A stretch of 64,000 nucleotides of DNA from Bacillota bacterium (GCA_017557505.1 JAFYYP010000010.1:2148-66147), one strand, 5' to 3'; positions 7,477 through 55,614 are shown, numbered from the stretch's first letter. A program made the numbers and translations. The notes: generated from the sequence alone by a model not told the origin.

Positions 7477-10400
7477 ATGAGAAAGTTGTATGGATCCACA
7501 AGCTGGAGACGCGTACTGGCTCTCGTCCTGGTATTCGTGATGATGTTCTCCGTCATGGGAACATCCGGCTATTCCGTCTTTGCGGAAAGCGAACCGACCG
7601 AAACCCAGGAAGAGGTCATCGCGGCCGAGCCTGAGGTCGTCGACCAGGAAGTCACAGAAGACATCCAGGGCCCGTCCCCCGGCGAGGAAGAAGCCGAAGC
7701 GATCGTCGAACCTGTCGAAGAGGCAGAGGAAGACGAAGCGGACGTCGAAGCTGTAGAAGAGGCAACCGAAGAAGCGGAAGAGCCCGCGGAAGAAGCTGTC
7801 GAAGAAGCAGTCGAAGACGAAGAGGCTGAAGAACCTGCTGCAGAGGTCGAAGAAGCGGAAGAACCCGCTGAAGAAGCCGAAGCGGTGGAAGAAGACGAAG
7901 CCGAGGCAGAAGAGCCTGCGGAAGAGTCTGAAGAAGAACCTGCTGAAGAAGTTGAAGCAGGCGAAGCCGAAGATACTCTGATCGCAGAAGCTGCACAGGC
8001 CATCATCGAAGATGACGGTTCTGAAGCGCCGGCTGAAGAGGCGGAAGAAGTTGCTGAAGAAGCAGTCAAAGAGGCTGAAGAAGAAGCAATCGAAGAACTT
8101 CCCGAGGAAGAAGTTATCCCCGAAGGGCCCACGTCCTTCGCGCCGAAGAAATTCGGTGACACGACGGTTACTGTAACCGCCGAGCCCTACACCTTCCCGG
8201 AAGGCACTACGGTAACGATCGAAGAGGTTTTCCTTGGCAGAACCCAGAAGGCTGCCATTGCTGACGCTGTCGAAGAAAAAGTTGAAATCGTTAAAGCATA
8301 CGATATCACTTTCTTTGATGCGGATGGAAGCGAAGTTCAGCCTGCTATTCCGGTAAAGGTAAGCATTGTTTCCGATGCTATTGCTGAATCTGATAACCTC
8401 CAGGTCGTCCATATGGAAAACGAGAAGAAGGCTGAGGTCGTCGATATTGACGTTACCGAAGAGGGCGTCGAGTTCGGTGCGAAGCACTTCTCGGTTTATG
8501 TTGTTGTCGAGACGGTGGTTCCCAGACTGACGGTCTACTTTGGTGATCAGGGTTCAATTGCTTCCATGATTATCAAAAAGGCAGATACCGCCGCTGAGGT
8601 TGACGATATCATCTATGATCCCGGTGTCGGCACGGTTCCTGCTGGCCAGACCTTCAAAGGTTGGACCACAGAAGGCGCAACCGAATTGATGACCATTGAA
8701 GGCGTTAGAACCGATGCGATGGCGAAGGTGGCTGAGTTAACTGCAAATGGTGAGGTTACGTATACTCCAGTATTCTATAAGCAGTATACCGTCACTTATG
8801 TCGATATTAACGGCATTGCTGTTGGAACTGAAGCTGTTGACCTCCCCAGCACTGAAACCAATGCTGAGTATACCGTTAATATGAATTATTCAACGGATGA
8901 TACTCACAATTTTGAGGGATGGCATATCGCTGACGCTGATAGCTTAGAGAGTATTGTCTCCCCGACGGGTTTAACAATCGAGTCGCTCATAGCAAATGAG
9001 ACGGATATAGTTATCAAAGGCGATCTTAAGCTTTCTGCTGTTGCCCCCGAGGGGTGTTGGCTTGTTTTTGATGAAAACGGCAAAGGTGCATCTTATGTAG
9101 CCCCGCAGTTCGTTAAGGCTGATACAGTCACCAAAGAACCTTTAATTGAAATGAGCCGTTTTGGCTATACCTTTGGTGGTTGGTATGATACCAAAGAACA
9201 TGCAGATGCACACGGAAATGCTGAGGATCCCTCGACGGTAACAACTGGTGAGTTTGCCTTTAACGAACTGCTTGACAAGGCAACTACAATTTATGCTAGC
9301 TGGATTCCCAATAAAAACGCTGCTTATGCCATTGTATTTTGGACACAGAGTTTGGACAAAGATGGTTACGAAGTGGCCGGTTCATATGTTGGCAAAAATG
9401 GTATAGTTGGACAGAATATCCCTTATACCGTTATTGAAAATGGAGATGAGGATTACGTCGCCAGAAAATCCGGAGATTCAGATTCGATTTCTTATGATTT
9501 CGGCACCTATGAGGACGAGCATGGAGAAACTAAGGATCAGGGTCACTTTACGGGTTTCTGCCTGACGGATGACAGCAAGAATCTGGAGGTTGCTATTACA
9601 CCAGAAGGTGATGCGGTTTTGAATCTTTATTATGACCGTATTACTTACAACTTCAAATTCTACCTATACAGAGACGGAGCACAGGGTGGTTATGACTATG
9701 CTAATAACTCGGGTAGTGGTTCTGATTTAGATGGACTTGTTACTTGGCATACGAATCAGACCCAGCACCCTTCTGTAAAAAATGTCGATGAGCTTGAATC
9801 TGAAGTCGTTGGAGGAAGAACCTATTACTATTATGTAATGGAGGCTTACTACGGCGAGGATATAAGCGAAAAGTGGTTGACTTATGACATGATTGAAGGG
9901 GCGAATAATCGTGAGCCTGTTAGTTATGTCATGATGATTCATACATATTTAAAGCCGAATCCTACAAACCAGGGCTCTGGTACTGTTAAGGGTGTTATTT
10001 CAGTTTTGAATGATAATATCCTTGGTGCAACGAATGATTCGAATGGAAACTATGTAGTTGTTCGTTTCCCGGCTAATTTCTTTAACTGGAGATATCATAT
10101 CTGGCTCGAGGCTGCTGAGGGGAATGATTATACTGATAAAGAAACTTACGAGTATAATGGAAAAACTTATTATGAAGAGACTGTTATGGAGGTTCGTTCC
10201 AGCAATATAACAGATAATAACCAGAATGAGCCTAAGTATACAGGATTCGACTATGTTACAAGGCTTGGACAAAATCAAGCCGGAGAATGGGGCGGCGGTC
10301 ACTGGGCATATAACGCAAATGGTGCCTGGGCAGGCCAGAATAATACAGAAAACCAGAATTGGGAGTATCATCTTAATTACGTTTACAATCGTCAGCAATA

Positions 10401-13400
10401 TAGAATCAGTTATTTTGATGGGGCTTATGTAAACGAAAAGAATGATTCACTTCAAAATCGTTCATCTCAGTTGTTACATGAAAGTGCTTTAATTGGCCAA
10501 GGTGTAACAATTGCAGATGAGTACCGTAATTATACGCCTGAGTTGCCTGAAGGCCAGGCCGGATATGTCTTTGAGGGCTGGTATTTAGATAAAGACTGCA
10601 AGGTGGCTTATACCTTCGATAAAATGCCCATTGGTGGTATTATGGTATACGCTAAGTGGCGTCAGGTTCAGTATCGTGTATTCCTCCATCCCAAAGCTGA
10701 TTTGGACGTTCCCCTTGATTGGGGTAAAAACGATGACGGATCTTCACCTTCAATGTGCTTCCGCGTCGACTACGGTGAACAGATTTCTGCGCCTACTGGC
10801 AGGCAGACTGGTTACGAGTTTTATGGATGGTATTGGGAAGACGGGTCTGTATTCAATGAATCAACCAAAATAAAGAGTGGGACTCCATACAACATGGATA
10901 CAGATTATACTGATCCTATGGATGAATATGGGGTCATTGGAAGCAATCCCACCAACTCTGATAAAACCGGATTTAATGGTGAAAAACGTTTCTGGGTCAT
11001 TGGAAGGGTCGACCTTTATGCTAAGTGGGGCGAGATCATTACCGGTGCCGATGGCATTACCGTAAAGTATGATGCCAATGGTGGTACCAATGCTCCGACA
11101 GACAGCGTGCTCCATAAGGACAATACTCCCGTTGGCGCAGGCGCTGCCGCAACTGCACCTGAAGGCAAGGTCTTTGATCGTTGGATGGTACAGACTTGGA
11201 ACCCCGATACTGAAGAATACGATGATACCAATAATACTTATTTACCTGGTGTAGAGTTTGATGTTCGCAAGAGTGATGCGAAGATCACAAAGGCAGGTAC
11301 TGAAACGGTTGTTGCGCCTACGGCTGTTGTCGAAGGCGAGAAGTACGATTATACCGTCATGCTGAAGGCTGTGTATAAAGATGTCGAAGAAAAGACTCCG
11401 ACTCATATCGGCTGGTACAGCAATTATGGTGAAGGTAAAGGCGAAGAATACCGTTACGATACGTTAGACGAGGCGGGTAATCCTTCTCTTGGCATCAACG
11501 TTGGCGTAGATATCTATGCTGCTCCGAGCCGTCCTGGTTATACGTTCAAGGGTTGGACAAAGACTCAGGGTGGTACGACTGCAGACTTCCTGATCTGGAC
11601 TGGCAGCGAGTATACAGATGTAAATGGTAATACTGCTACTCAGGTCGCAGCTGATGAAAAGCAGAATCAAGGCCAGTATGATGACCTCTTTGCTGTTTGG
11701 GAAGAGGCTGAAGTAACCATCAACTATGCAGTTGCGGAAGACAGTGCCAATATGGGCAGTGTGGCTCCGACATCTGAAACAGTGAAGGCTGAGACCGGAA
11801 CTGCTGCAGGCTCTACTGCAACTCCAAGCGGAGAATATCTCTTCGATTACTGGACTTGCGACACCGGTACCGATCATGTTGGTACTGCGGCGGCATTTGC
11901 ACCTTCCAAGAATGCGGATGGTGTATATGAAGCTCACACCTACTATGCACACTTTAAAGAAGTTGAGCCCGAAACCTACACCATCCTCTACAATTCCAAC
12001 TACTCGTCCTATGTGGAAGAGCTTACGGAAGATGATGATCTGAAGGTCCAGACGGAGCCGGCTACTTCTCTGAAGATTCTGAGCCCGGCTGATGAAGCAC
12101 TGAAATTTGCTGAAGAAGAAGGGTCAGATTGCATCTGGACTGCCGAAGATGGCACTAAGTTCAGATTCATTGGCTGGTTCACTGACCGGCAGAAGCAGGT
12201 AGGCAAGCACGAGATTGACTCCTCTTTCCCCGAAAATGGAACTTCTGGAGATGAGGACGATAATAACAACGGACAGATCGGCGATGACCAGATTAGCGAA
12301 CAGACCGATCCTACTCCCGCTACTGGAGAAGGTACTTCTTCCAGCGCAATCTCGACCAGCGCACAGAGACTCCGTGCAATGATCGCGACTACCAGTGAGG
12401 GTGATGATCCCGACCTCGTGCTCTACGCTCAGTGGGAAGAGGTTGTGGAACCGGTTGAACCGAATGCAGAATTAACTATCACTAAGGTAACTACTTCTAC
12501 TCCCGCAAGCGAAGATGGAAAGTATGCACTTGGTGAGGAAATCACCTATGAGATTACGGTTAAGAATACCGGTAACCAGACTATTACGAACGTCGTGGTC
12601 ACTGACGACCTGACCGGTGATGTATGGCCTGGCGAAGGTGAAGATCCGCTGACTCTGGAACCGGACGAAACTAAGGTATATACTACCAGCTATACTGTCC
12701 AGGAAAAGGATATCCTGGCTGGCGAAGTTGTGAACGTAGCAACTGCGACCGGTGACGATCCTAATGGTGATGATCCCACTATCGTTCCGGGTGAAGATCC
12801 CGAACCGACGGAAGATCCGAATCCGCACATCTTGGTTGAAAAGAAGACCACTTCTGCTCCGGCTAATGGCAAGTATTATGTCGAGGGCGAGACGATCACT
12901 TACGAGATCACTGTTACCAACGATGGTAACCTGACAGTTACCAACATTACGGTGATCGACGAGCTTACAGGATTGGAAGAAACGATTCAGAGTCTTGCAC
13001 CGCAGAGTGTTGATCCAGACGCAAAGGAAGTCTTTACCACAACTTATGTGGTTACTGCAGATGACGTGACAGCGGGCAGCGTAAAGAACGTTGCAACTGC
13101 TGAGGCAGAGAATCCCGCAGACGATCCTGAGAATCCGAACGTTCCGGTGAAGGACGGCGAGACTGAAGATCCGACAAAGGATCAGACTCCGGACAATCCG
13201 GGTCCGCGTCCAAGACCGACTCCGACCGAGGAAGAACCGGACGAAGTGATCCCTGAAGACGATACTCCGCTGGCTCCCTATGAGGAAGACCCCGAGGAAG
13301 TGATTCCCGAAGACGATACTCCGTTCGCACCTTACGAGGAAGAACCGGACGAAGAAGTCGCTGAAGAGCCGACTCCGTTCAGCCCGTACACCGGCGATGA

Positions 13401-13488
13401 TCGCCACACGGCAGCTTGGGGCTTCGTAAGCCTCCTGTCCCTGGCAGGCATCGCGGTCGTGGCCAGAAAGCGCAGAGAAGAGGAGTAA
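7477..13488 (+). CDS. Giant (2003 aa) cell-wall-anchored surface adhesin-like protein, paralogue of 342-7178
   Basis: The start was moved from the track's 7450 to the ATG at 7477, which matches the paralogue's start and RBS. The signal peptide is near-identical (MRKLYGSTSWRRVLALVLVFVMMFSVMGTSGYSVFA). It also has an acidic spacer, GYxFxGW..YAxW modules, two DUF11-like repeats, and a C-terminal SPYTGDDRHTAAWGFVSLLSLAGIAVVARKRREEE. Confidence 0.9.
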   Translation: MRKLYGSTSWRRVLALVLVFVMMFSVMGTSGYSVFAESEPTETQEEVIAAEPEVVDQEVTEDIQGPSPGEEEAEAIVEPVEEAEEDEADVEAVEEATEEAEEPAEEAVEEAVEDEEAEEPAAEVEEAEEPAEEAEAVEEDEAEAEEPAEESEEEPAEEVEAGEAEDTLIAEAAQAIIEDDGSEAPAEEAEEVAEEAVKEAEEEAIEELPEEEVIPEGPTSFAPKKFGDTTVTVTAEPYTFPEGTTVTIEEVFLGRTQKAAIADAVEEKVEIVKAYDITFFDADGSEVQPAIPVKVSIVSDAIAESDNLQVVHMENEKKAEVVDIDVTEEGVEFGAKHFSVYVVVETVVPRLTVYFGDQGSIASMIIKKADTAAEVDDIIYDPGVGTVPAGQTFKGWTTEGATELMTIEGVRTDAMAKVAELTANGEVTYTPVFYKQYTVTYVDINGIAVGTEAVDLPSTETNAEYTVNMNYSTDDTHNFEGWHIADADSLESIVSPTGLTIESLIANETDIVIKGDLKLSAVAPEGCWLVFDENGKGASYVAPQFVKADTVTKEPLIEMSRFGYTFGGWYDTKEHADAHGNAEDPSTVTTGEFAFNELLDKATTIYASWIPNKNAAYAIVFWTQSLDKDGYEVAGSYVGKNGIVGQNIPYTVIENGDEDYVARKSGDSDSISYDFGTYEDEHGETKDQGHFTGFCLTDDSKNLEVAITPEGDAVLNLYYDRITYNFKFYLYRDGAQGGYDYANNSGSGSDLDGLVTWHTNQTQHPSVKNVDELESEVVGGRTYYYYVMEAYYGEDISEKWLTYDMIEGANNREPVSYVMMIHTYLKPNPTNQGSGTVKGVISVLNDNILGATNDSNGNYVVVRFPANFFNWRYHIWLEAAEGNDYTDKETYEYNGKTYYEETVMEVRSSNITDNNQNEPKYTGFDYVTRLGQNQAGEWGGGHWAYNANGAWAGQNNTENQNWEYHLNYVYNRQQYRISYFDGAYVNEKNDSLQNRSSQLLHESALIGQGVTIADEYRNYTPELPEGQAGYVFEGWYLDKDCKVAYTFDKMPIGGIMVYAKWRQVQYRVFLHPKADLDVPLDWGKNDDGSSPSMCFRVDYGEQISAPTGRQTGYEFYGWYWEDGSVFNESTKIKSGTPYNMDTDYTDPMDEYGVIGSNPTNSDKTGFNGEKRFWVIGRVDLYAKWGEIITGADGITVKYDANGGTNAPTDSVLHKDNTPVGAGAAATAPEGKVFDRWMVQTWNPDTEEYDDTNNTYLPGVEFDVRKSDAKITKAGTETVVAPTAVVEGEKYDYTVMLKAVYKDVEEKTPTHIGWYSNYGEGKGEEYRYDTLDEAGNPSLGINVGVDIYAAPSRPGYTFKGWTKTQGGTTADFLIWTGSEYTDVNGNTATQVAADEKQNQGQYDDLFAVWEEAEVTINYAVAEDSANMGSVAPTSETVKAETGTAAGSTATPSGEYLFDYWTCDTGTDHVGTAAAFAPSKNADGVYEAHTYYAHFKEVEPETYTILYNSNYSSYVEELTEDDDLKVQTEPATSLKILSPADEALKFAEEEGSDCIWTAEDGTKFRFIGWFTDRQKQVGKHEIDSSFPENGTSGDEDDNNNGQIGDDQISEQTDPTPATGEGTSSSAISTSAQRLRAMIATTSEGDDPDLVLYAQWEEVVEPVEPNAELTITKVTTSTPASEDGKYALGEEITYEITVKNTGNQTITNVVVTDDLTGDVWPGEGEDPLTLEPDETKVYTTSYTVQEKDILAGEVVNVATATGDDPNGDDPTIVPGEDPEPTEDPNPHILVEKKTTSAPANGKYYVEGETITYEITVTNDGNLTVTNITVIDELTGLEETIQSLAPQSVDPDAKEVFTTTYVVTADDVTAGSVKNVATAEAENPADDPENPNVPVKDGETEDPTKDQTPDNPGPRPRPTPTEEEPDEVIPEDDTPLAPYEEDPEEVIPEDDTPFAPYEEEPDEEVAEEPTPFSPYTGDDRHTAAWGFVSLLSLAGIAVVARKRREEE
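12466..13110 (+). repeat. Two tandem DUF11-like domain repeats
   Basis: ELTITKVTTSTPASEDGKYALGEEITYEITVKNTGNQT.. and HILVEKKTTSAPANGKYYVEGETITYEITVTNDGNLT.. Boundaries are approximate. Confidence 0.55.
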
Positions 13489-17415: not shown

Positions 17416-17450
17416 AAAAACTCCGGGCCGGACGGTCCGGAGTTTTGTGT
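17416..17450. terminator. Bidirectional hairpin between convergent genes
   Basis: aaaaactccgg...ccggagtttt inverted repeat, flanked by A and T tracts. Confidence 0.5.
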
Positions 17451-17463
17451 TGCATTGCAAATA

Positions 17464-18651
17464 TTACTCGATGGGGATCTTCACCTTGCAGTCCGAGAGC
17501 GGATAGGCCGCGCACGCGTGGATGTAGCCGAAATCCTTATCGGCTGCACGTCTGCCGTCGTTCTCCGGGCAGATGAACGTGTTGCCGGAGATCAGCTTGC
17601 TGCGGCAGAACCCGCACTCGCCGCTGCGGCAGCCCGTTTCGATGCGGATGCCGGCTCTTTCGAGCGCCACGACGATGCTTTCGGTAGCCTTTGCCGGGAT
17701 CACGTCTTCGTGGATGCCACGGACGACCGTCAGATTGAAGGTCTGGTCCGACAGTTCCTTCGGGAAGCCTTCGTAGACCGTGATGTCCTTCGCCTGGCCG
17801 AATACCTCGAAGCGGATGCGCCGCTTGGGCGTACCCATCTTCTTCAGTTCTTCGTGCAGGAAGCGGTACATGACCTGCGGTCCGCAGATAAAGTACGTCG
17901 TATCCGGCGCGGAGTACTTCTGGATCAGTTCAGCGGAGAGGAAGCCCCTTTCGCCTTGCCAGTCAGGTTCGTCTCCGGACAGCACGTGGACGATCTTCAG
18001 GCGGTCGCTCTTCAGCGCTTCCAGTTCTTCCTTCAGCGCGATGTCGTCAGAGCTTACCGAACCGAACAGGATCGTCAGATCCATGTCCAGCGTGCCGTGC
18101 GCGACTTCCTTCGCCATGGAAGCGAACGGAGTGATGCCAACGCCGCCGGCCAGCGCCACGACGTTTTTCGCGTCTCTCAGCGGTTCGTAATAGAACTGTC
18201 CGTGTCCCATGCTTCCCATAAAGGTGTCGCCCACCTTTACGTTGTCGTTGATGTGGTCACAGATAAAGCCGTCGCCCTTGGACCGCCGCACCGTGATCTC
18301 CACGAACGGCTTTTCTTCCAACCGCGCCTCGAACGGCGCGGAGGAGATGGAGTAGGGGCGGGAGATGAGGCTCTCGCCGATGGGGAAGTCCAGCACGATG
18401 TACTGACCCGCGTAGAACGGGGGCAGCTTCTTGCCGTCCGGGCGTTCGAATCTCAGCGTTTTCGAGGTCTTGCTCGCGGGACGGATGTCCGTCACGACCA
18501 GTTCGATCTTGCCGGGATGCCACTCTCTGGCGACGTCCCCGATCGGGTCGGTCTGCACGGGTACCGGAGAAGCGTTCGCGAACGCTTCGAGTCTTGCTTT
18601 CGTGATGCGGGAGGCGCCGCCGACGTCTTTCAGAAATCCTTTAACTTTCAT
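17464..18651 (-). CDS. FNR-type FAD/NAD(P)-binding reductase fused to a C-terminal plant-type 2Fe-2S ferredoxin domain
   Basis: RPYSISS (RxYS FAD motif), LAGGVGITPF (NAD-binding motif) and C-terminal CRSGECGFCRSKL...C. The start codon directly abuts the upstream stop. Confidence 0.85.
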   Translation of the reverse strand: MKVKGFLKDVGGASRITKARLEAFANASPVPVQTDPIGDVAREWHPGKIELVVTDIRPASKTSKTLRFERPDGKKLPPFYAGQYIVLDFPIGESLISRPYSISSAPFEARLEEKPFVEITVRRSKGDGFICDHINDNVKVGDTFMGSMGHGQFYYEPLRDAKNVVALAGGVGITPFASMAKEVAHGTLDMDLTILFGSVSSDDIALKEELEALKSDRLKIVHVLSGDEPDWQGERGFLSAELIQKYSAPDTTYFICGPQVMYRFLHEELKKMGTPKRRIRFEVFGQAKDITVYEGFPKELSDQTFNLTVVRGIHEDVIPAKATESIVVALERAGIRIETGCRSGECGFCRSKLISGNTFICPENDGRRAADKDFGYIHACAAYPLSDCKVKIPIE

Positions 18652-20178
18652 CTACTTCGCCTCCTCTGCCATGGAATCCAGCACGTATTTCGCGGCTTTT
18701 CTGCCGTTGGTCACCTGCGGGCCCATGCCGTTGCCAGTCAGCTGGTGCGCCGAGCCGAATTCCAGATGTTTGATGAAGTGCTCGGCGTCCGCGGTCTGCA
18801 GTCTCGCGACGACGTGGTCTTTCATGTCGTGCATATAGCCGTAGACGCAGCCGTTCCACATGCCGGTGTAGTGCGCGACCGTCATGGGAGTCTCGATGAT
18901 CACTTCCAGCGCGTGATCCAGCAGGTTTACGCCGTAGTACTTGCTCATCTCTTCGACCATGGAACGGGCGATGTCGTGCTTCACCTTGTCGACTTCATCC
19001 GCGCCGACCTTCAGCCAGCCGTCCACGCGCGGCAGCGCCGTGATGGACAGGATGCACGTACCTTCCGGCGTGCACGTCGGATTGGCCAGATTGAGGCAGA
19101 TCGTCGTGATGTAGTTGTACGGTCCCAGCGTCTTGTAGTTCTCGAAGATCGCGTCCGTGTCCATGGTATCGCCCTTGAACACGTTGTAATCCTTGATGCC
19201 CAGCTCTTCCGCCGTCTTATCGAGCAGCAGGAAGACCGTAAAGGCTGTGACCCCGATCTTACGGCCGTTCACGGCTTTGATGGCGCCTGCAGGCACTTCG
19301 CCCGCCGGTTCGATCATGGACGTGTAGACCTTATTGGGGTAGGCGGAGCAGATGACGTAATCGCCGTGGATCTCGTCGCCGCGCTTCGTGCGCACGCCGT
19401 AGGCTTTGCCGTCCTTGACGAGGATCTTTTCGACGGGCTGCTTCAGCTCGATCTGCACGCCCATTTCCTCTGCGCGCGCGAACATCTTCATGGACATCTC
19501 GTGCGAGAGCTTTTTAGGCACTTTCGAACCGCTGCCGATGTAGTCTGCCATCAGGAACGCGTAGATCGTGAAGGGCAGGGTGGACAGCGGCGCGCCGACG
19601 TAGATCCAGTAGGGGGACATCAGGTCGATGGCCTTCTGAGGCAGGTCGAACGTGTCGATGACTTCCTGCGCGGAATAGCCGGCTGTCTTGACGAAGTCCG
19701 TGTGCTTTAAGAGCATGGCGGGCTTGCTCATCGGGTGGATGCCGAGCTCGTTCATGCTGTTGCACACGCGGTCGCACAGCATCAGCAGATCGTAGACCTT
19801 CTGATAGCTGCCGGGGACTGCGGCGTCCACTTCCTTCGCAAAGCGCTCGTATCCGGGGTGCAGCGTCACTTCGAGGCCGGGCAGGGAAGCGTGATATGCC
19901 TCGGGCACTTCGAGCCAGTCGATGTTCACGCCCATGTCGTCGAAGAACTGACCGACCTTCAGGCGCTTGCCGGGGTCACCGATGGACATCATCTCGTGCA
20001 GCGTCGCTTCGATCTCCACGCCGCCCCGCACGAAGCTGGTGGCAAGGCCTCCGGGCAGATTGTGGCGCTCGAGCACCAGCACGTCCTTGCCTTTGTCCGC
20101 CAGCATCAGAGCGGAAGACAGACCGGAAAGACCGCCGCCGACGATGATGACGTCGTAATGGTCTTTGTAAAACTTCAT
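18652..20178 (-). CDS. Phytoene-desaturase (CrtI)/RetSat-like NAD(P)/FAD-dependent oxidoreductase
   Basis: N-terminal dinucleotide fold DVIIVGGGLSGLSSALMLADKGKDVLVLERHNLPGG. The length (508 aa) and overall pattern fit the CrtI family. Confidence 0.8.
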   Translation of the reverse strand: MKFYKDHYDVIIVGGGLSGLSSALMLADKGKDVLVLERHNLPGGLATSFVRGGVEIEATLHEMMSIGDPGKRLKVGQFFDDMGVNIDWLEVPEAYHASLPGLEVTLHPGYERFAKEVDAAVPGSYQKVYDLLMLCDRVCNSMNELGIHPMSKPAMLLKHTDFVKTAGYSAQEVIDTFDLPQKAIDLMSPYWIYVGAPLSTLPFTIYAFLMADYIGSGSKVPKKLSHEMSMKMFARAEEMGVQIELKQPVEKILVKDGKAYGVRTKRGDEIHGDYVICSAYPNKVYTSMIEPAGEVPAGAIKAVNGRKIGVTAFTVFLLLDKTAEELGIKDYNVFKGDTMDTDAIFENYKTLGPYNYITTICLNLANPTCTPEGTCILSITALPRVDGWLKVGADEVDKVKHDIARSMVEEMSKYYGVNLLDHALEVIIETPMTVAHYTGMWNGCVYGYMHDMKDHVVARLQTADAEHFIKHLEFGSAHQLTGNGMGPQVTNGRKAAKYVLDSMAEEAK

Positions 20179-20193
20179 GCGAAACCCTTTCGT

Positions 20194-21579
20194 TTAGAAG
20201 AATCTGTCGACGAGTTCGCGGGAGTATTCGGCCGTTTCGTCCATGTCGCCGTAGCTCATGACTTCGCCCGCGTAGAACGTGTCGTACTTGCCCTGCATGG
20301 CTTCGACCTTGTCGTACCAGCCCGCGGTGTAGTCTTCGGAGAAGACGTGGGGGAAGTAATACACGGACCACTCGTTGATAACGTTGCTCGCGGGGTTGCC
20401 CATGATCTTCAGATCGTCGAGCACCATCTGACGGCACTTCTCGTACGGGATCTCGGCCATGTTCTTATGCTTTCTGAGGGCGTAAGTCGTGATGACCTGG
20501 TCCTTAGTGTCTTTCCAGCGTCTGTAGTAGACCATGAGGTGACCCAGCTTGGAGGGGACCATGTTGTCGAACACGTAGTAGGAGATCTCGGGGTGGTCTT
20601 CGGGCTTGGTCTCGACTGCCAGCACGTCGTAGCGCTCGTAGTCGATCTTGGAGAACAGTTCCTTCTCGTCTTCGCGGACGTCGAAGTATTCGTCCATGCC
20701 TCTCTGGCCGTCGGCTCTGGTGCCGGGGATGTGCAGCGGCGCGGTGACGATGATCTTATCGTATTCTTCGACCTGGCCGTTCACGGTGACGTAAACCTTG
20801 CCGTCGCGTCTTTCGACCTTCTCGATGTTGCTGTTCAGGCGGGCGTGGTTCTTGAGCTTGGCGTCCAGCTGCTCCCAGATCCACTGCGTGCCTTCTTTCC
20901 AGGTCCACAGATTGATCTTGACGAAGTTCATGGTGGTCTGGAAGTCGAGGTACTTCAGGACGTAAGCTGCGGGGATCTCGTCGAAGTAGCCGTAGCCGAA
21001 GGACGTGAACGGTCCGATCCAGATATCCTGGATGAGCTCGACGCCGTTCATCTCGCAGAACTTGTTGAAGGGCATGCACAGATCCTTCAGGTTGGGGTTC
21101 TCGCCGGAAACGGGTTCTCTGCCCGGGGTCACGGCATAGCCTTCGTAACGGCCTTCCGCAACGCCTCTGTGGCCGTTCAGGTCGTAGCCTTTGTATTTGG
21201 TCTCCAGCAGTTCGCCGAACTTCTGGACCTGCTTCTTCATCTTGAGCAGGCGGGGGATCTTGAAGATGTTCTTCTTCGGCTCGAACGGTTCGATGACCTT
21301 GCCGGCGCCGTTCTTGTAGTTGCGGTTGAGCTTGGGGCCGTCGTGCGTGATGCCGCAGAACTCTTCGACGTCGTGGACCGCATAGTAGGAGGGTACGCCC
21401 ATGATGGCGCCCATCTCGTAGCGGCGTCCGTTGTAGGTCGGGGACCAGCACTTGCCGCCGACGCGGTTCTGGCGCTCGAGGATCGTGTAGTTCTCGTAGC
21501 CTTTCTGCTCGAGGTACATGCCTGCGGAGAGACCGGCGGGGCCGCCTCCGATGATGCAGATACGGGTATTCTTGTCCAT
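20194..21579 (-). CDS. FAD-dependent oxidoreductase/isomerase, amine-oxidase fold (polyenoic fatty-acid isomerase-like)
   Basis: RICIIGGGPAGLSAGMYLEQKGYENYTILERQNRVGGKC dinucleotide fold with RBS ggagaa. As I recall it, the layout resembles the Cutibacterium acnes polyunsaturated fatty acid isomerase family. This is unverified. Confidence 0.7.
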   Translation of the reverse strand: MDKNTRICIIGGGPAGLSAGMYLEQKGYENYTILERQNRVGGKCWSPTYNGRRYEMGAIMGVPSYYAVHDVEEFCGITHDGPKLNRNYKNGAGKVIEPFEPKKNIFKIPRLLKMKKQVQKFGELLETKYKGYDLNGHRGVAEGRYEGYAVTPGREPVSGENPNLKDLCMPFNKFCEMNGVELIQDIWIGPFTSFGYGYFDEIPAAYVLKYLDFQTTMNFVKINLWTWKEGTQWIWEQLDAKLKNHARLNSNIEKVERRDGKVYVTVNGQVEEYDKIIVTAPLHIPGTRADGQRGMDEYFDVREDEKELFSKIDYERYDVLAVETKPEDHPEISYYVFDNMVPSKLGHLMVYYRRWKDTKDQVITTYALRKHKNMAEIPYEKCRQMVLDDLKIMGNPASNVINEWSVYYFPHVFSEDYTAGWYDKVEAMQGKYDTFYAGEVMSYGDMDETAEYSRELVDRFF

Positions 21580-21687
21580 AGAAATTCTCCTTCTGAGTTA
21601 ATGATAGTTAACAAAATAATTATACTATAAAAGAGGCGCGCGTATGTTATACTATTAACGAAATTGTTCGAAATTTTGGAGAATACC

Positions 21688-23022
21688 ATGCGGTTTCAAA
21701 CTTTTTTTGGGATGCTGGGACATTGGGCAGCCATTGACTCCGATGCGCCGGCATTGATCTACGAAAAAGACGGAGAAAAAAGGACGGAAAGCTATGCGCA
21801 GTTGCTGGCTGCCGTGCGTGACCGCGCGGAAACGCTGAAGGTCTGTGCCGGACGCTGCGAAGCGATCCTCGCGGACGGTTCGAGAGACTGTATCGTGGAG
21901 GTGTTTGCGGCGCTGAAGGCGGGTCTTTCGGTCGCGTTGCTGGATGCAGCCGCGCCGGACGAAACGCTGCGCGAGCAGCTGAAGGCCTGCGATACGGGAC
22001 TGGTCTGGGGCGATGAAGATCTGTGCGAAGAACTCGGGTTTACCGCGCTAGCGCAGACGGATGCGAAGCCCGGCGACGTGCTGTTCTTCACATCCGGAAC
22101 GACGCACCGCGCGAAGGCCGTCGTCCTGACGGAGGAAAGCCTCTGCAGCAGCGCCTATAACGGCGGCGCCCTGCTGCCGCTGCAGCCTTCCGATCTGCTG
22201 ATGTGCATGCTGCCTCTGTCGCACGTGTTCGGTTTCGTGTGCGGCCTGCTGTGGGGACTGTCCTGCGGCGCTTGTGTCGCGCTCTGCCGCGGTGTGCGCC
22301 ATTATCTGGACGATCTGGCGACGTTCCGTCCCACGGCATTGTCGGCGGTGCCTCTGCTGCTTGGATTCCTCGTGCAGCACGAGCTTCTGAATCCTGAGTT
22401 GAAGCTGGTGCTGGTCGGGGCAGGCGATTGTCCGCGGCCGCTGCTGCAGCGGGTCAAGGACAGGAACATCCGCGTCTCGTTCGGCTACGGTCTGACCGAG
22501 ACCAGTTCCGGCCTCGCGTTGTCCCTGGGCACGGATCCCATGAGCATGACGGTCTGTCCGGACGACCGCATCCGCATCGCGGAAGATGGGGAGATCCTCG
22601 TCGACGCGCCGACCTGCGTCATGAAAGGGTATTATAAGGATCCGGAAGCCACAAAAGAGGCCTTTACGGAAGACGGCTGGCTGCGCACCGGAGACCTCGG
22701 CAGGCTGGACGAAGAAGGGAAGCTGACCATCACAGGCCGCAAGAAGGACATGCTCGTGTTCGAAGACGGCACGAAGCTGTTCCTGCCGGAAGCAGAGGCC
22801 GAACTGGCCGCGCTGCTGCCGGGACTGGAGCTGGCGCTGTATCAGAAAGACGGCAAAGTCTGGCTGGCTGTGGCCGGAGATGCCGACGAAAAAGACGTCA
22901 AACGCAAGATCGTTCCCTGGCAGGACAGACAGGACCGCAGCCATAAGATCGCAGGGATCACGCTGCGCGAAGACCCGCTGCCGCGCACAGCGACCGGCAA
23001 AGTCAGGCGCTGGGAATTATAA
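21688..23022 (+). CDS. AMP-dependent synthetase/ligase (fatty-acyl-AMP/ACP ligase-like)
   Basis: The start was reassigned to the ATG at 21688, after ttggagaatacc. Adenylation motifs are FFTSGTTHRAKAV, GYGLTETSS, GDLGRLDEEGKLTITGRKKDMLV and LPRTATGKVRR. Confidence 0.85.
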   Translation: MRFQTFFGMLGHWAAIDSDAPALIYEKDGEKRTESYAQLLAAVRDRAETLKVCAGRCEAILADGSRDCIVEVFAALKAGLSVALLDAAAPDETLREQLKACDTGLVWGDEDLCEELGFTALAQTDAKPGDVLFFTSGTTHRAKAVVLTEESLCSSAYNGGALLPLQPSDLLMCMLPLSHVFGFVCGLLWGLSCGACVALCRGVRHYLDDLATFRPTALSAVPLLLGFLVQHELLNPELKLVLVGAGDCPRPLLQRVKDRNIRVSFGYGLTETSSGLALSLGTDPMSMTVCPDDRIRIAEDGEILVDAPTCVMKGYYKDPEATKEAFTEDGWLRTGDLGRLDEEGKLTITGRKKDMLVFEDGTKLFLPEAEAELAALLPGLELALYQKDGKVWLAVAGDADEKDVKRKIVPWQDRQDRSHKIAGITLREDPLPRTATGKVRRWEL

Positions 23023-23031
23023 GGAGAACCA

Positions 23032-23277
23032 ATGAGCAGAGAAGAACTCAGAGAACGGACCATCAAGATCATCCGCGACTGCGTGCCCGAACTCGCGGAT
23101 ACGGAGATCACGGAGGCGTCCGTCGTCAATACGGACATGGGCATGGATTCCATGAACTTCATCCTCGTCATCTGCAAGCTCGAGGCGGAGTTCGGGGTCA
23201 AGATCCCCAATAAGCTGTGGAAGAAGCTCTCCAGCCTCGGCGACGTGCTGGACGCGCTGCAGAAATACGGGGCGTAG
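23032..23277 (+). CDS. Stand-alone acyl carrier protein
   Basis: An 81-aa protein with the phosphopantetheine attachment motif DMGMDSMNFILV. RBS aaggagaacc. Confidence 0.8.
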   Translation: MSREELRERTIKIIRDCVPELADTEITEASVVNTDMGMDSMNFILVICKLEAEFGVKIPNKLWKKLSSLGDVLDALQKYGA

Positions 23278-23280
23278 GCG

Positions 23281-23994
23281 ATGTACGAACAGAAGCTCCT
23301 GTTGGGATCCGAACACGTGGATCTGCACCGGCGCATGCGCACTTCGGTGCTGTTTTCGCTGCTGCAGACCGTTTCGATCCGCCATACGGAGCAGCTCGGC
23401 ATGGGCCGCGACAAGACGCTGGACAAAGGCTTGTTGTGGGTCGTGACCCGCATGCACGCCGAGATCACGCGTATGCCCGAATACGACGAGACCGTTGTTA
23501 TCCGCAGCTGGCCCGGCGAAACGATGCACCTGCTGTTTCCGCGGTATTACGAGATCGCGCTGGAAAGCGGGGAAGTGCTCGTGCGCGCGAGCGCGGTATG
23601 GTCGCTGATGGATGAGAAGGAGCGCACTGCTGTGTTTCCGGACGAGTACGGCATCGTGATCGAGGGTGAGGAGAACGGCCGCGAACTGCCGTGGCTGGTG
23701 CCCGTAAAACCCTTGGAAACGACGCAGAGCGACGTGTTCCGCGTGCCGTACAGCTACGTGGACATCAACGGGCATCTGAACAACACGCGGTATTTCGACC
23801 TGGCGGAGGACCGCATCCCGGCGGCTGCCGCAGGGTGCGCCCTGAAGGCCGTGACCGCCGAATACAACAGGGAAGTGCGCCTGGGCGAGGATCTAAACAT
23901 CTCGCTGGGTGTTAACGATAACGATTATTACGTTGCAGGGGAGACGGACCACCCGTGCTTCCGTCTGCAGCTGACATTTGCGGAAAAGGAGTAG
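23281..23994 (+). CDS. Acyl-ACP thioesterase (FatA/B-type hotdog)
   Basis: 237 aa. The pattern ..VDLHRRMRTSVLFSLLQ...GLLWVVTRMHAEI..WPGE.. and ..YVDINGHLNNTRYFD.. is typical of bacterial acyl-ACP thioesterases. Confidence 0.8.
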   Translation: MYEQKLLLGSEHVDLHRRMRTSVLFSLLQTVSIRHTEQLGMGRDKTLDKGLLWVVTRMHAEITRMPEYDETVVIRSWPGETMHLLFPRYYEIALESGEVLVRASAVWSLMDEKERTAVFPDEYGIVIEGEENGRELPWLVPVKPLETTQSDVFRVPYSYVDINGHLNNTRYFDLAEDRIPAAAAGCALKAVTAEYNREVRLGEDLNISLGVNDNDYYVAGETDHPCFRLQLTFAEKE

Positions 23995-23997
23995 ACC

Positions 23998-24666
23998 ATG
24001 GACCCGATCAAGATCATCGAAGTAAAAGAGAGCGTATTTGAAGACAACAACGCGGACGCGGCGAAGCTGCGCGCGGAACTGAAGGAGATGAAGACGTTCC
24101 TGCTCAACCTGATGTCCTCGCCCGGCAGCGGCAAGACGACGCTGCTGAAACAGGTGCTGGGCCGACTGAAGGACGAGATGCGCATCGGGGTCATGGAGGC
24201 CGATATCGACTCCGACGTCGACGCTAAGGCGATCTCGGAGACCGGCGTGCGCGCCATCCAGCTGCACACGGGCGGCATGTGCCACCTCGACGCGGACATG
24301 ACCCGCCAGGGCGTGCGCGAACTGGGCATCGACGACCTGGACCTCGCGATCCTGGAGAACGTCGGCAACCTGGTGTGCCCGGCGGAATTCGACACCGGCT
24401 CCGTAAAGAACGCGGTCATCGTGTCCGTTCCCGAGGGTCACGACAAGCCGCTGAAGTACCCGCTGATGTTCGAAGTCGCGAACGTGATGATCATCAACAA
24501 GATCGACGTGCTGCCGTATTTCGATTTCGACATGGACAGGGTCGTCGAATACGCGCACATGCGCCATCCGGGGCTGGAGATCTTCCCGGTCTGCGCGAAG
24601 ACTGGCGAGGGCGTCGATGCGCTCTGCGATTGGCTGCGCAGGGAAGTGAAGGCCTGGAACGAATAG
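23998..24666 (+). CDS. hypB: Hydrogenase/urease-type nickel-incorporation GTPase HypB
   Basis: P-loop SSPGSGKTTLL, metal site GGMCHLD, ENVGNLVCPAEFD and NKIDV. Confidence 0.9.
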   Translation: MDPIKIIEVKESVFEDNNADAAKLRAELKEMKTFLLNLMSSPGSGKTTLLKQVLGRLKDEMRIGVMEADIDSDVDAKAISETGVRAIQLHTGGMCHLDADMTRQGVRELGIDDLDLAILENVGNLVCPAEFDTGSVKNAVIVSVPEGHDKPLKYPLMFEVANVMIINKIDVLPYFDFDMDRVVEYAHMRHPGLEIFPVCAKTGEGVDALCDWLRREVKAWNE

Positions 24667-24673
24667 CAGAAGC

Positions 24674-24762
24674 AATAAAAAGCCGGATCTCGAACGGGAG
24701 GCAGTCGCTAACGCACGAGCGAAGCGAGGAGTGGTGCCGACCGACGAGATCCGGTTTTTATT
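24674..24762. terminator. Long-loop inverted repeat between convergent genes (probable bidirectional terminator)
   Basis: aataaaaagccggatctcg (24674-24692) pairs with cgagatccggtttttatt (24745-24762). The arms are separated by a 52-nt GC-rich loop. Confidence 0.45.
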
Positions 24763-24771
24763 GTGCCCCTA

Positions 24772-27591
24772 TTATTCCTGCCAGGTCGGGTAATCCGACT
24801 TGCCGGTGACCTTCTTCTTGACGATCTTGACCATGCGCTTGAGCGCGTACGGTCCGACGACCTTCATCATCTCCTCCGCTGTATGCATGTCGCTGGCAGC
24901 GGGCAGGTCTCTCTGCAGATGGATGGCGTCGAATTCGCAGCGCGTCGTGCACAGGCCGCAGCCTATGCACTGGTTCAGGTCGACGGTCGTGGCGCCGCAC
25001 TTCAGGCAGCGGTTGGCCTCGATGCGCACCTGCTCTTCGGTGAGCGGCAGGCGCAGGTCGTCGAACGTTGCGGCTGCTTCTCCGGGTTTGAGGCCTGGCA
25101 TCTGGCGCTGCGCGTTGTCGTAGCATTCGACCGAGATATCGTCGCGGTCCAGTTCGATGAACTCGCGCAGGTCGCGGCCGATCGTGAGCGACTGGCCCGG
25201 ATGCACGAAGCGGTTGATGGACACGGCGCCCTGGCGTCCGGCTGCGATGGCGTCGATCACGAACTTCTGACCCGTGTAAGCGTCGCCGCCGACGAAGATG
25301 TCGGGTTCGCCGGTCTGATAGGTGACCGGATCCGCAACGACCGTGCCGTTGCGGTTGAACTCGACCTTCGTGCCTTCGAGCAGCTTGCCCCAGTCAGGCT
25401 TCTGACCGATGCAGAACAGCACGTTCGCGCACTCTGCGGTCTCCATCTGCGCATCGTCGAACTTCGGGTCGAATCTGCCTTCCGCGTTCTTGACGGACAG
25501 GCACTTGCGGAACGCGATGCTGCTCGCTCTGCCTTCTGCGTCCTTGAAGATCTCTGTCTGGCCCCATCCCGCGTGGATGCGGATGCCTTCTTCTTCGCAT
25601 TCTCTGCGGTCGTCCGGCCCCATAGGCATCTCGTCGTAGCTTTCGAGGCAGTAGAGGTCGACGCTTTCCGCGCCGGCTCGCAAAGCCGTTCTGGCCACGT
25701 CCGCCGCGATGTTGCCGCCGCCGATGACGACAGTCTTTCCGCTCAGGCGAATGCTCTCATCCTGGTTGATCTCCCGGGCGAATTCGATGCCGGCGCGCAC
25801 GCCAATTGCGTCTTCTCCGGGAATGCCCATCTTGCCGCCGCTCTGCAGGCCCGTCGCGATGTAGAAGGCTTTGTAGCCCTGATTGCGCAGCTGCTGCAGG
25901 GTCACGTCCTTGCCGACGTCCACGCCGCAGCGGATCTCGACGCCCATCTTCCGGATGATGTCGATCTCGCCCTCGATGACCTTCTTTTCCAGGCGGAAGT
26001 TGGGGATGCCGTTCATCATCATGCCGCCGGGGCGCTGTTCGCGGTCGAAGACGGTAACGGGATAGCCGTTCATGCGCAGATAATACGCCGCGGTGAGCCC
26101 CGCAGGGCCCGCGCCGATGACGGCGATGGGGAACTCGTCCCACTGCTTGCCGTCCATGTTGTCGCAGATGGGCACGAAATCGCTCGGATTCATGAGTTCC
26201 CACTGCGCAAGGAATTTCTTGATCTCGTCGATGGCGACAGCCTTGTCGATCGTGCCGCGCGTGCAGCGGTCTTCGCATCTTCTGTTGCAGATCGCGCCGC
26301 AGACGGCAGGGAAGGGGTTATCCTGGCGGATGAGCTTCACGGCGTCCGCATAGCGGCCGTCCGCTGCCATCTTGATGTATCCCTGGACTGCCAGGTGAGC
26401 CGGGCAGGCCGTCTTGCACGGCGACGTGCCGGTGTCGTAACAGTTGATCTTGTTGTGGTCGCGGTAATCCCAGTCCCACTTGTCTTCGCCCCACACGTTG
26501 TCGTCGGGCAGGTCGTGCATGGGATAGCGCACCTTGCTGCCGTCAGCCCTACACAGCTTCTGACCGAGCTTGGCCGCGCCGGCCGGGCACACTTCGACGC
26601 ATTTGCCGCAGGCGACGCACTTTTCCTTGTCCACATGCGCGCGGTAGGCGCTGCGGGACATGTTCGGTGTATTGAACAGCTGGGAAGTCCTCAGGCCGTA
26701 GCAGCTGCCCGGAGAGCAGTTGCAGATGCCGACGATGCGGTTCGGGCCGTCCAGGTTCGTGATCTGGTGCACGTAGCCCTTGCGTTCGGCGCGCTTGATG
26801 ATCTCCATAGCTTCTTCGCGGGTGATGTAATGCGCGTCCTTGCCGGTCTCCACGAGGAACTCCGCGATGTCGCCGACGCCGATGCACATGTAGCCTTCGA
26901 TGTCGCCGACGCCTTCGCCGCGCACGCGCTGAGCCTTGCGGCACGCGCAGACCATGGTGCAGAACTTGTCATATTTCTGCAGCCAGTGAGACAGATGCTC
27001 GACGGAGACAGACTGCGATGCGCCATCGATGGCTTCCTCCACCGGGATGACGTGCATGCCGATGCCGGCGCCGCCGGGCGGGATGAGCTTTGCAGCGAGT
27101 TCGAGCGGTTCCTGCGGCGCGAGATTGAACATCGTCGCGACTTCCGGATTCGTGTCGGTCAGGGTGGGGTGCTCGACCATGTATTCGCCCGAGCCTACGA
27201 CCCATTTCGGGATCCAGTACTGGATATGCTCGTCGGCGTTGTCGCGGTTCTGCTCGATGATGCCGATCCACAGCAGATGGTCGATGACCTTCTGCGCTTC
27301 TTCTTCGGTCATTTGATTGCGCTTTGCGAGCTCGGGCGTCGTGAGTCCGACGCGGCGCTTTTCGAAGCTGAGCATGAACTTCACCTCATCCTTCGTCAGC
27401 AGCCGGTCGAGGATCCAGAAATCCATGTGGTTTTCCTTCATGCCGCCGGGCAGCTTGCGGGGGATGTTGTCCGTGATCATGCGCGCGAGCTTTAAGACGA
27501 GTTCCTTCTTCTCGGGGTCATCGCACTTGTGGTCCGTGACCGGATAATCGCGCTCGTTGACGTGGATCTTGGGGTTGACTTCTTTGACCAT
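24772..27591 (-). CDS. Multidomain Fe-S flavoprotein: Cys-rich N-terminal module, GltD/NfnB-like FAD/NAD(P) oxidoreductase core and C-terminal 2x[4Fe-4S] ferredoxin motif
   Basis: The start was reassigned to the ATG at 27591, with RBS ggagg 7 nt upstream. That ATG overlaps the hypA stop (TGATG). Motifs: CVACGKCVEVCP; CGAICNRRCEDRCTRG; VIGAGPAGLTAAYYL...GGMM..GIPNFRL; VVIGGGNIAADVA; CLKCG...CIGCGLCTTRCEFDAI. Confidence 0.85.
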   Translation of the reverse strand: MVKEVNPKIHVNERDYPVTDHKCDDPEKKELVLKLARMITDNIPRKLPGGMKENHMDFWILDRLLTKDEVKFMLSFEKRRVGLTTPELAKRNQMTEEEAQKVIDHLLWIGIIEQNRDNADEHIQYWIPKWVVGSGEYMVEHPTLTDTNPEVATMFNLAPQEPLELAAKLIPPGGAGIGMHVIPVEEAIDGASQSVSVEHLSHWLQKYDKFCTMVCACRKAQRVRGEGVGDIEGYMCIGVGDIAEFLVETGKDAHYITREEAMEIIKRAERKGYVHQITNLDGPNRIVGICNCSPGSCYGLRTSQLFNTPNMSRSAYRAHVDKEKCVACGKCVEVCPAGAAKLGQKLCRADGSKVRYPMHDLPDDNVWGEDKWDWDYRDHNKINCYDTGTSPCKTACPAHLAVQGYIKMAADGRYADAVKLIRQDNPFPAVCGAICNRRCEDRCTRGTIDKAVAIDEIKKFLAQWELMNPSDFVPICDNMDGKQWDEFPIAVIGAGPAGLTAAYYLRMNGYPVTVFDREQRPGGMMMNGIPNFRLEKKVIEGEIDIIRKMGVEIRCGVDVGKDVTLQQLRNQGYKAFYIATGLQSGGKMGIPGEDAIGVRAGIEFAREINQDESIRLSGKTVVIGGGNIAADVARTALRAGAESVDLYCLESYDEMPMGPDDRRECEEEGIRIHAGWGQTEIFKDAEGRASSIAFRKCLSVKNAEGRFDPKFDDAQMETAECANVLFCIGQKPDWGKLLEGTKVEFNRNGTVVADPVTYQTGEPDIFVGGDAYTGQKFVIDAIAAGRQGAVSINRFVHPGQSLTIGRDLREFIELDRDDISVECYDNAQRQMPGLKPGEAAATFDDLRLPLTEEQVRIEANRCLKCGATTVDLNQCIGCGLCTTRCEFDAIHLQRDLPAASDMHTAEEMMKVVGPYALKRMVKIVKKKVTGKSDYPTWQE

Positions 27592-27938
27592 CAGTAAGCC
27601 TCCAGTTCTTTGATATTGATCTCGTTGCCCCGCAGCAGCCACGTGTCCGGGCTCTGGCAATGGGGGCATATCTTACCGTACTGGACGGTGGGGTATGTTC
27701 TTTTGCAATTCTCGCAGTATGTGACCGCGGGGATCTCTTCGATCTTCAGTTCGGCTTCCTGCAGGACGGGCGGGCGTTTCTTGACGGCCCAGTTCCAGCA
27801 GCGCACCATCTCCGACGTGATGACGCCGGAAACCTCGCCGAATTCCATGGTAACGGAGGCGATTTTCGTCAGTTCGTTCTCTTCTGCCAGCCTTTCGACG
27901 CGGTCCAGCGCGTGGAAGACGATGCCGAGTTCGTGCAT
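27591..27938 (-). CDS. hypA: Hydrogenase nickel-insertion protein HypA
   Basis: N-terminal MHELGI plus the zinc site CENC...CPHC in a 115-aa protein. Confidence 0.9.
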   Translation of the reverse strand: MHELGIVFHALDRVERLAEENELTKIASVTMEFGEVSGVITSEMVRCWNWAVKKRPPVLQEAELKIEEIPAVTYCENCKRTYPTVQYGKICPHCQSPDTWLLRGNEINIKELEAY

Positions 27939-44795: not shown

Positions 44796-44865
44796 TATAA
44801 CATAGCGTATTGTGTCCAAAACACACTTTTTCAAATATTTTTCACCTCGTAAAGGAGATGAGTGG

Positions 44866-50552: not shown

Positions 50553-50567
50553 ACCGGGAAGGAGGAT

Positions 50568-53771: not shown

Positions 53772-53819
53772 GCAAGGGCGGAAAGCCCATATCAGAGAAT
53801 AGAAAAGGAGAAATAGAAA

Positions 53820-54617: not shown

Positions 54618-54629
54618 AGGAGACCTCCC

Positions 54630-54866: not shown

Positions 54867-54867
54867 G

Positions 54868-55605: not shown

Positions 55606-55614
55606 GGAGAAACT

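Follow-up and report, generated by a model that had tools for sequence, protein, structure and literature searches.

A conserved gene island of uncultured rumen Clostridia as a candidate locus for biohydrogenation of polyunsaturated fatty acids

Does a cluster of flavoenzyme and acyl-handling genes in a Bacillota bacterium encode the steps by which rumen microbes isomerise and saturate dietary fatty acids? Ruminal biohydrogenation sets the polyunsaturated, conjugated, trans and saturated fat in milk and meat, and its trans-10 branch causes milk-fat depression. In its classical form, linoleate biohydrogenation comprises one isomerisation and two reductions. To our knowledge, the isomerases are only partly known after 60 years; a gene for the conjugated linoleic acid (CLA) reductase of B. 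fibrisolvens was reportedly described by Fukuda in 2007. The cluster lies at 17464–23994 of the window analysed here (64,000 nucleotides of GCA_017557505.1, JAFYYP010000010.1:2148-66147). A first-pass annotation, made from the sequence alone, had read its six genes as a locus for remodelling fatty acids on a carrier protein, and had added that the reductase step is poorly defined genetically in gut and rumen Clostridia. The literature concurs that biohydrogenation reductases are poorly characterised (PMC13188719), and uncultured taxa are tied to the process by correlation only (PMC13464031).

We propose, with slightly more confidence than doubt, that the cluster is part of a conserved island of uncultured rumen Clostridia for the biohydrogenation of dietary linoleic and linolenic acid. 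The catalytic roles given to its products below are predictions that build on demonstrated gene content, family assignments and conserved synteny. All six open reading frames (ORFs) of 17464–23994 lie where the first-pass annotation placed them, and their junctions and domains are upheld by Pfam and by separate gene calls on public contigs that encode the identical isomerase-like protein. On the minus strand, a gene for a flavoenzyme of the polyenoic fatty-acid isomerase (PAI) family is followed after 15 nt by that for a CrtI-like flavoenzyme and, with no intervening nucleotide, by that for an FNR-type reductase. The divergent plus-strand operon encodes an acyl-AMP-forming ligase, an acyl carrier protein (ACP) and a thioesterase, with gaps of 9 and 3 nt. 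Ending the cluster at 23994 made it too small, omitting hypB, hypA and a gene for an IsrA-like flavoprotein. The whole island spans 17464–27938 in three transcription units (ten genes by our count, nine of them itemised here). The outline and families of the earlier reading thus stand, and it was incomplete in missing the nickel-chaperone and IsrA-like half and over-specific in its carrier-bound chemistry.

Membership of the first flavoenzyme (20194–21579, minus strand, 461 amino acids, Amino_oxidase) in the PAI family, on which the earlier proposal hinged, is as well supported as sequence can make it. Aligned with the C. acnes isomerase (PDB 2b9w), the only linoleic-acid isomerase known to have a solved structure, the protein matches at E = 1.8e-137 and 462 bits over residues 2–138 and 165–461, with 54.1% identity at 416 aligned positions, and it keeps the FAD GxGxxG motif. 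Two insertions relative to C. acnes PAI, of about 24 (residues 139–162) and about 10 amino acids (283–294), mark the rumen clade, in which median identity is 85.5% across 68 homologues. Arg88 and Phe168 occur in 67 of 67 homologues and Phe193 in 66 of 67, and the window protein has all three. We take Arg88 and the backbone of Phe193 to hold the free carboxylate at the mouth of the PAI channel, which Phe168 lines; these roles are said to come from work by Liavonchanka in 2006. In classical work, the ruminal isomerase and PAI need a free carboxyl group. The near-invariance of the residues that bind the carboxylate disfavours an isomerase acting on a carrier-bound chain, as had first been suggested. 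By parallel with C. acnes, the product would most likely be the trans-10,cis-12 diene. The window gene differs from its C. acnes counterpart in its setting, an island with two reductase systems and an acyl-carrier module.

The second flavoenzyme (18652–20178, minus strand, 508 amino acids, Amino_oxidase) has a CrtI-type fold and lies outside every curated carotenoid family. Its top curated model is the carotenoid isomerase (carot_isom, TIGR02730), which it matches at 99.2 bits against a cut-off of 586.9; for crtI_fam (TIGR02734) the score is 68.8 against 238.1. An AlphaFold model (pLDDT 84.8) has the three-domain CrtI-type fold, nearest among solved structures to CrtD (4rep; TM 0.77/0.80, E = 5.7e-27, 17% identity), then to CrtI (4dgk; TM 0.56/0.69) and after these to generic amine oxidases, so the structural comparison bears out the earlier CrtI-like call. 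Its 1,112 relatives are annotated as generic oxidoreductases only. The grounds that the first-pass annotation had named against a fatty-acid role, clustering with carotenoid enzymes and the company of carotenoid genes, do not refute it: by curated thresholds the protein is not a carotenoid enzyme, and no carotenoid or squalene synthesis gene recurs among 80 related loci (described below). The enzyme thus shares its fold with CrtI, CRTISO and RetSat but differs in scoring four to six times under the family cut-offs, in having 12–17% identity and no carotenoid genes nearby, and in being paired with an FNR-2Fe-2S reductase in a strict anaerobe.

That partner (17464–18651, minus strand, 395 amino acids) combines FAD_binding_6, NAD_binding_1 and a C-terminal plant-type 2Fe-2S domain (Fer2), the set and order of flavin, NAD and 2Fe-2S modules found in class I reductases such as phthalate dioxygenase reductase, BenC and PaaE. 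Its best PDB matches are benzoate dioxygenase reductase, flavohaemoprotein and phthalate dioxygenase reductase, and a Cx4Cx2C motif is present in 77 of 77 homologues. Unlike these reductases, it falls under every equivalog cut-off (PaaE, 122 bits against 421), and in place of an oxygenase it has a CrtI-fold flavoprotein as its partner, in an anaerobe. We propose that it is the NAD(P)H-dependent electron donor of the CrtI-like enzyme. CRTISO and RetSat require reduced flavin or an electron donor, which fits such a partner, and we infer that the module suits a reductive or reduced-flavin-dependent reaction better than desaturation. On these grounds the CrtI-like protein is a proposed reduced-flavin-dependent C=C saturase, or possibly an isomerase.

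A second candidate reductase lies in the half of the island added here. The last gene of the ligase operon, 3 nt beyond the thioesterase gene, is hypB, encoding a nickel-insertion GTPase (23998–24666, plus strand; TIGR00073, 238.6 bits against a cut-off of 121.2; CH motif present). Convergent with it is the gene for an IsrA-like Fe-S flavoprotein of 939 amino acids (24772–27591, minus strand), which in the window forms its own two-gene transcription unit with hypA (27591–27938, minus strand), encoding a nickel metallochaperone of 115 amino acids (Pfam HypA, E = 7.3e-30; also called as a separate gene). The hypA stop overlaps an internal ATG of the longer, 965-codon ORF by 1 nt (TGATG), and we therefore set the start of the IsrA-like protein at Met27 of that ORF; the public gene calls concur. 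Because hypB sits within the ligase operon and hypA overlaps the IsrA-like gene, the nickel system is interleaved with the rest of the island even after rearrangement. HypA and HypB serving a nearby hydrogenase was rejected, as there is no [NiFe]-hydrogenase gene among the annotated large ORFs of the window.

The IsrA-like protein carries Fer4 (residues 319–339), Fer4_20 (DPD domain II; 384–466), Pyr_redox_2 (488–785) and Fer4_8 (872–905) domains. Solved structures cover residues 398–930 of the 965-residue ORF, as an NfnB/GltD-like module with a C-terminal Fer4, and leave the N-terminal third unmatched; likewise, no Pfam domain matches the Cys-rich N-terminal region of about 310 residues. This N-terminal domain is nevertheless the best-conserved part of the protein among 40 homologues. 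It contains two CxC motifs, C215xC217 and C290xC292, 75 residues apart; Cys 23, 211, 215, 217 and 236 are invariant (40 of 40) and Cys 290, 292 and 297 are present in 39 of 40.

These features match the published description of IsrA, the putative isoprene reductase of Acetobacterium wieringae, which has 901 amino acids, an unannotated N-terminal domain, four 4Fe-4S sites and CxC motifs at 180/182 and 254/256, a spacing of 74 (PMC10134865). Its operon has the order isrA-hypA-hypB-fdx-hypA (Kronen et al. 2023, PMC10134865), and 73% of its 'clade 9' relatives have hypA, and 56% hypB, as a neighbour. Both systems thus pair a flavoprotein of about 900 residues, with two CxC motifs 74–75 apart and the same succession of Fer4, Fer4_20, Pyr_redox_2 and C-terminal Fer4, with adjacent hypA and hypB genes, and in both the proposed substrate is a conjugated diene. 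The island differs in having no IsrA-type ferredoxin gene and in linking a fatty-acid isomerase, the CrtI-like/FNR pair and the ligase–ACP–thioesterase genes. Isoprene, the only substrate proposed for the IsrA family, is likewise an unactivated conjugated diene, and by analogy the IsrA-like protein is the better candidate for the reductase of conjugated dienes, CLA included. The IsrA paper makes no mention of fatty acids as substrates; it does record an oleate hydratase gene adjoining the IsrA homologues of A. woodii and A. fimetarium (PMC10134865), which is in keeping with a fatty-acid role.

An exhaustive representative search found few full-length relatives of the IsrA-like protein, at 33–60% identity. 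Among six distant relatives whose gene context was read, hypA lies directly downstream in four, one of which has TetR, hypA and two cobW genes. One 902-residue relative (P0134) was considered as IsrA itself and rejected on gene context. A protein 33% identical (locus L084, 6001–10431) has no hyp genes nearby and lies one gene from an acyl-ACP thioesterase. Another, 43% identical (L089, 8001–18201), is followed by two 415-residue Fer4_6 proteins, an AMP-binding fragment and an OYE-type reductase; the ferredoxin-like genes at this locus are reminiscent of the isr operon.

The arrangement is widespread. Of 188 confirmed CrtI-like relatives among GTDB species genomes, we took the best 80 and scored the synteny of their loci by tblastn with the window proteins and by public gene calls. 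De novo clustering of the longest ORFs in these loci was abandoned, spoiled by long antisense ORFs in the G+C-rich DNA. All 80 host genomes are metagenome-assembled genomes (MAGs), and the names of at least 55 (RUG, RGIG and ruminal_MAG) mark them as coming from the ruminant gastrointestinal tract. The CrtI-like gene is followed by the FNR gene in 80 of 80 loci, and the PAI-like gene is present in 72, most of the other eight contigs stopping close to this gene or at it; the order PAI, CrtI-like, FNR is constant. In loci with 2.7 kb or more available upstream of the PAI-like gene, ligase and thioesterase genes are found in 51 of 54; in those with 3 kb or more beyond the FNR gene, an IsrA-like gene is found in 40 of 50, and in 31 of these 50 it lies directly 3′ of the FNR gene on the same strand, a few to a few tens of nucleotides away. 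No gene family recurs in the 80 loci beyond PAI, CrtI-like, FNR, IsrA-like, ligase, ACP, thioesterase, HypA and HypB.

Recurrence of this arrangement in 80 species-level genomes is far beyond chance. The synteny survey, which the first-pass annotation had called for, thus yields a conserved cluster concentrated in ruminant-gut genomes, as would fit a biohydrogenation locus; the wider framing as gut and rumen Clostridia in general gives way, the recovered homologues being mostly ruminant-gut MAGs. The catalytic redox genes are far more conserved than the acyl-handling genes: median identities are 85.5% for PAI, 76% for the IsrA-like protein, 74% for FNR and 72% for the CrtI-like protein, against 54% for the ligase, 53% for the ACP and 47% for the thioesterase. 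Recent horizontal transfer does not explain the high conservation, because the G+C content of the cluster tracks that of its flanks (r = 0.76); the island genes are therefore long-term residents, not recent imports. Some loci depart from the window in copy number. L028, L045, L049, L056, L058 and L070 each have a pair of IsrA-like paralogues, one sharing about 75% and the other about 60% identity with the window protein, and a tandem hypB ends the ligase–ACP–thioesterase operon in L010, L013, L041, L045, L049, L058 and L070, with hypA alongside in L010, L013 and L041. These duplications may reflect separate reductases for dienes and trienes.

The acyl-handling genes themselves look catalytically competent. 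The ligase (21688–23022, plus strand, 444 amino acids) is of the ANL family (AMP-binding, E = 5.6e-40), with FadD13 and MenE as its best PDB matches and the Lys of a C-terminal TGKVRR motif present, and we propose that it loads the adjacent ACP. The latter (23032–23277, plus strand, 81 amino acids) is a dedicated carrier protein (PP-binding, 27.9 bits against a cut-off of 20.8) but not the housekeeping AcpP, whose equivalog it matches at best at 47.1 bits against a cut-off of 70; Asp39-Ser40 is invariant in 58 of 58 homologues. In the FatA/B-type acyl-ACP thioesterase (23281–23994, plus strand, 237 amino acids), both hot-dog domains (Acyl-ACP_TE, PF01643, and Acyl-ACP_TE_C, PF20791) exceed their cut-offs, at 81.3 and 42.2 bits, and a DxNxHxNN motif is kept in 52 of 56 homologues; DxNxH is the catalytic motif of acyl-ACP thioesterases. 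In L059 (1007–3818) and L053, the ligase–ACP–thioesterase genes do not adjoin the PAI–CrtI–FNR triad, and in L059 that region holds a TRAP (DctPQM) carboxylate transporter; L020 also has no ligase, ACP or thioesterase gene beside the triad.

In the model that we favour, the PAI-family flavoenzyme would convert the free cis-9,cis-12 acid to a conjugated diene, most likely trans-10,cis-12. HypA and HypB would mature the IsrA-like protein, presumably by providing nickel at its N-terminal Cys-rich site, and this protein, drawing electrons from NAD(P)H and relaying them by way of FAD and successive 4Fe-4S clusters, would reduce the conjugated diene to a trans monoene, a reaction modelled on the reduction of isoprene to methylbutene. 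The CrtI/CRTISO-fold enzyme, kept reduced by its translationally coupled FNR-2Fe-2S partner, would saturate a further double bond, taking the monoene to stearate or removing the additional bond in products of linolenate. Either reductase system might take the role given here to the other. Ligase, ACP and thioesterase would trap, traffic or release the acyl chain but would not hold it during the isomerase step. With its single isomerase and its pair of NAD(P)H-linked reductase systems, the island matches the three classical steps, which supports the model.

Several points weigh against it. The PAI-like protein leaves both trans-10,cis-12 and cis-9,trans-11 as candidate positional outcomes. At 12–17% identity to the nearest solved structures, the CrtI-like enzyme could have saturase, isomerase or desaturase chemistry, which sequence does not separate. 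The 939-residue protein is likened to IsrA by its published description rather than by direct alignment, and IsrA is itself a proteogenomic candidate only, of unproven nickel content (PMC10134865). Three of the 54 informative loci are without ligase and thioesterase genes, and in 10 of the 50 informative loci no IsrA-like gene lies within 8 kb. The weakest link is what ligase, ACP and thioesterase do.

In the carrier-bound scheme, the free acid is loaded on the private ACP, isomerised and saturated throughout as acyl-ACP, and then released by the thioesterase. We consider this scheme rather unlikely as a whole, with on-carrier chemistry disfavoured for the isomerase and possible for the reductive steps. 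The three acyl-handling genes occur with the flavoenzymes in 51 of the 54 informative loci, lie in one operon with hypB and keep the residues expected of working proteins (ACP Ser40, the thioesterase motif and the C-terminal Lys of the ligase); the IsrA-like relative of 33% identity lies one gene from an acyl-ACP thioesterase, and the JamABC proteins of jamaicamide set a precedent for a ligase–ACP–desaturase system. Against this stand the conserved carboxylate-binding residues and the free carboxyl group needed by the ruminal isomerase and PAI, the much faster evolution of ligase, ACP and thioesterase than of the redox enzymes, and their absence from beside the triad in L053, L059 and L020. 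It is less likely again that PAI, CrtI-like enzyme and FNR form the entire fatty-acid pathway and that the IsrA-like protein, HypA and HypB are a separate system, for example a reductase for another unsaturated plant compound. IsrA-like/HypA pairs do occur without PAI in other organisms, the ten loci noted above have no IsrA-like gene nearby, and in the window this gene has its own transcription unit; yet such independence would not explain why the IsrA-like gene directly follows FNR on the same strand in 31 of 50 loci, why hypB or hypB-hypB-hypA sits inside the ligase–ACP–thioesterase operon, or why the adjacency outlasts rearrangement with conservation as high as that of the other catalytic genes.

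Two further explanations change the substrate or the direction of the chemistry. An island acting on isoprenoid or carotenoid-type plant lipids (phytol, carotenoids or isoprene) in place of C18 fatty acids seems very improbable: the PAI-like protein is 54% identical to a fatty-acid isomerase and keeps what we take to be its carboxylate gate, the CrtI-like protein is far under every curated carotenoid cut-off, no carotenoid or isoprenoid synthesis genes recur in the 80 loci, and a ligase, an ACP and an acyl-ACP thioesterase indicate carboxylic acids. What speaks for such substrates is that the CrtI-like fold is nearest to carotenoid desaturases, that isoprene is the only substrate proposed for the IsrA family, and that phytol is hydrogenated by rumen microbes. 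About as improbable, in our view, is a biosynthetic cluster in which the ACP serves for assembly of a specialised conjugated or polyene lipid, the CrtI-like enzyme is a desaturase and there is no reductive sink. CrtI enzymes are usually desaturases, and ligase, ACP and thioesterase are a typical starter module of lipid natural-product pathways, but condensing enzymes (ketosynthase, polyketide synthase or non-ribosomal peptide synthetase) are absent from the window and the loci, an NAD(P)H-type reductase partner suits electron delivery, not removal, in a strict anaerobe, and the distribution of the island follows the ruminant gut, rich in polyunsaturated fatty acids.

The island is also distinct from the CLA-HY/CLA-DH/CLA-DC/CLA-ER system of Lactobacillus plantarum. 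Both are multi-gene bacterial routes from linoleate through conjugated intermediates to monoenes, but the L. plantarum route uses a hydratase, a short-chain dehydrogenase/reductase (SDR), an acetoacetate-decarboxylase-like isomerase and an enone reductase, with hydroxy and oxo intermediates. Domain annotation and gene calls found no MCRA hydratase, SDR, acetoacetate-decarboxylase-like or enone reductase domain in the island.

Some features of the window may bear on expression of the island. The intergenic region common to both divergent operons (21580–21687), a predicted promoter region, is strongly AT-rich within a genome of about 59% G+C and holds two copies of TTATACTAT, at 21619 and 21646, and a GTTAA...GTTAAC element. 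It may be a shared operator; there is no regulator gene within the island. For the ligase, a start at the ATG at 21688, giving 444 amino acids, is more likely than one at the TTG at 21664. A terminator-like, bidirectional hairpin (17417–17446; 14-nt arms, 93% complementary, 2-nt loop), flanked by A and T runs, lies between the FNR gene and a convergent membrane-protein gene.

A second reductive pathway lies elsewhere in the window. It comprises two pairs of 2-hydroxyacyl-CoA-dehydratase-like (HGD-D) genes (44812–47663 and 49788–57675) together with a BcrAD/BadFG activator ATPase, a CooC/ParA-like ATPase, a small CdhC-like protein and an OYE and Pyr_redox_2 protein resembling enoate or dienoyl-CoA reductases. 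At 39613–44266, genes for a 4Fe-4S dicluster protein and a Pyr_redox_2 flavoprotein come after that for a molybdopterin oxidoreductase (744 amino acids). Two giant ORFs lie at 342–7178 (2,278 amino acids) and 7450–13488 (2,012 amino acids); the product of the latter looks like a surface protein because of its long acidic Glu/Ala-rich repeats, CLIPPER-type domains and C-terminal membrane anchor.

BLAST counts of PAI homologues have already been published for rumen MAGs of the Lachnospiraceae, Oscillospiraceae and Anaerovoracaceae, and neither those studies nor two reviews from 2025–2026 name reductase genes; we found no published description of the island in open-access papers and preprints. 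The PAI gene thus adds to a known family, and the island overall represents a known process in a new genetic form and stands a realistic chance of providing the reductases still missing. In a bolder form of the model, which we hold only tentatively and think doubtful in full, the island would by itself take linoleate all the way to stearate by way of trans-10 intermediates. If true, the IsrA-like protein, matured by HypA and HypB, would be the first CLA reductase to be defined genetically and, within lipid metabolism, the first reductase linked to nickel that acts on an unactivated conjugated diene. The CrtI-fold enzyme and FNR would then form a fatty-acid 'saturase' of a new type, directed at an isolated trans double bond, and the bacteria that carry the island would be the long-sought agents behind the trans-10 shift in the rumen, from which milk-fat depression results.

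The island offers a possible class of physiological substrates, conjugated fatty acids, for the IsrA/HypA proteins of anaerobes, a large family that is uncharacterised. It provides a concrete gene set for testing, found in dozens of rumen species yet to be cultured and made up of an isomerase, two reductase systems, maturation factors and acyl-handling genes, and it provides marker genes by which trans-10 biohydrogenation might be followed in metagenomes. The island is a strong candidate for the missing gene set that turns dietary polyunsaturated fat into trans and saturated fat in ruminants.

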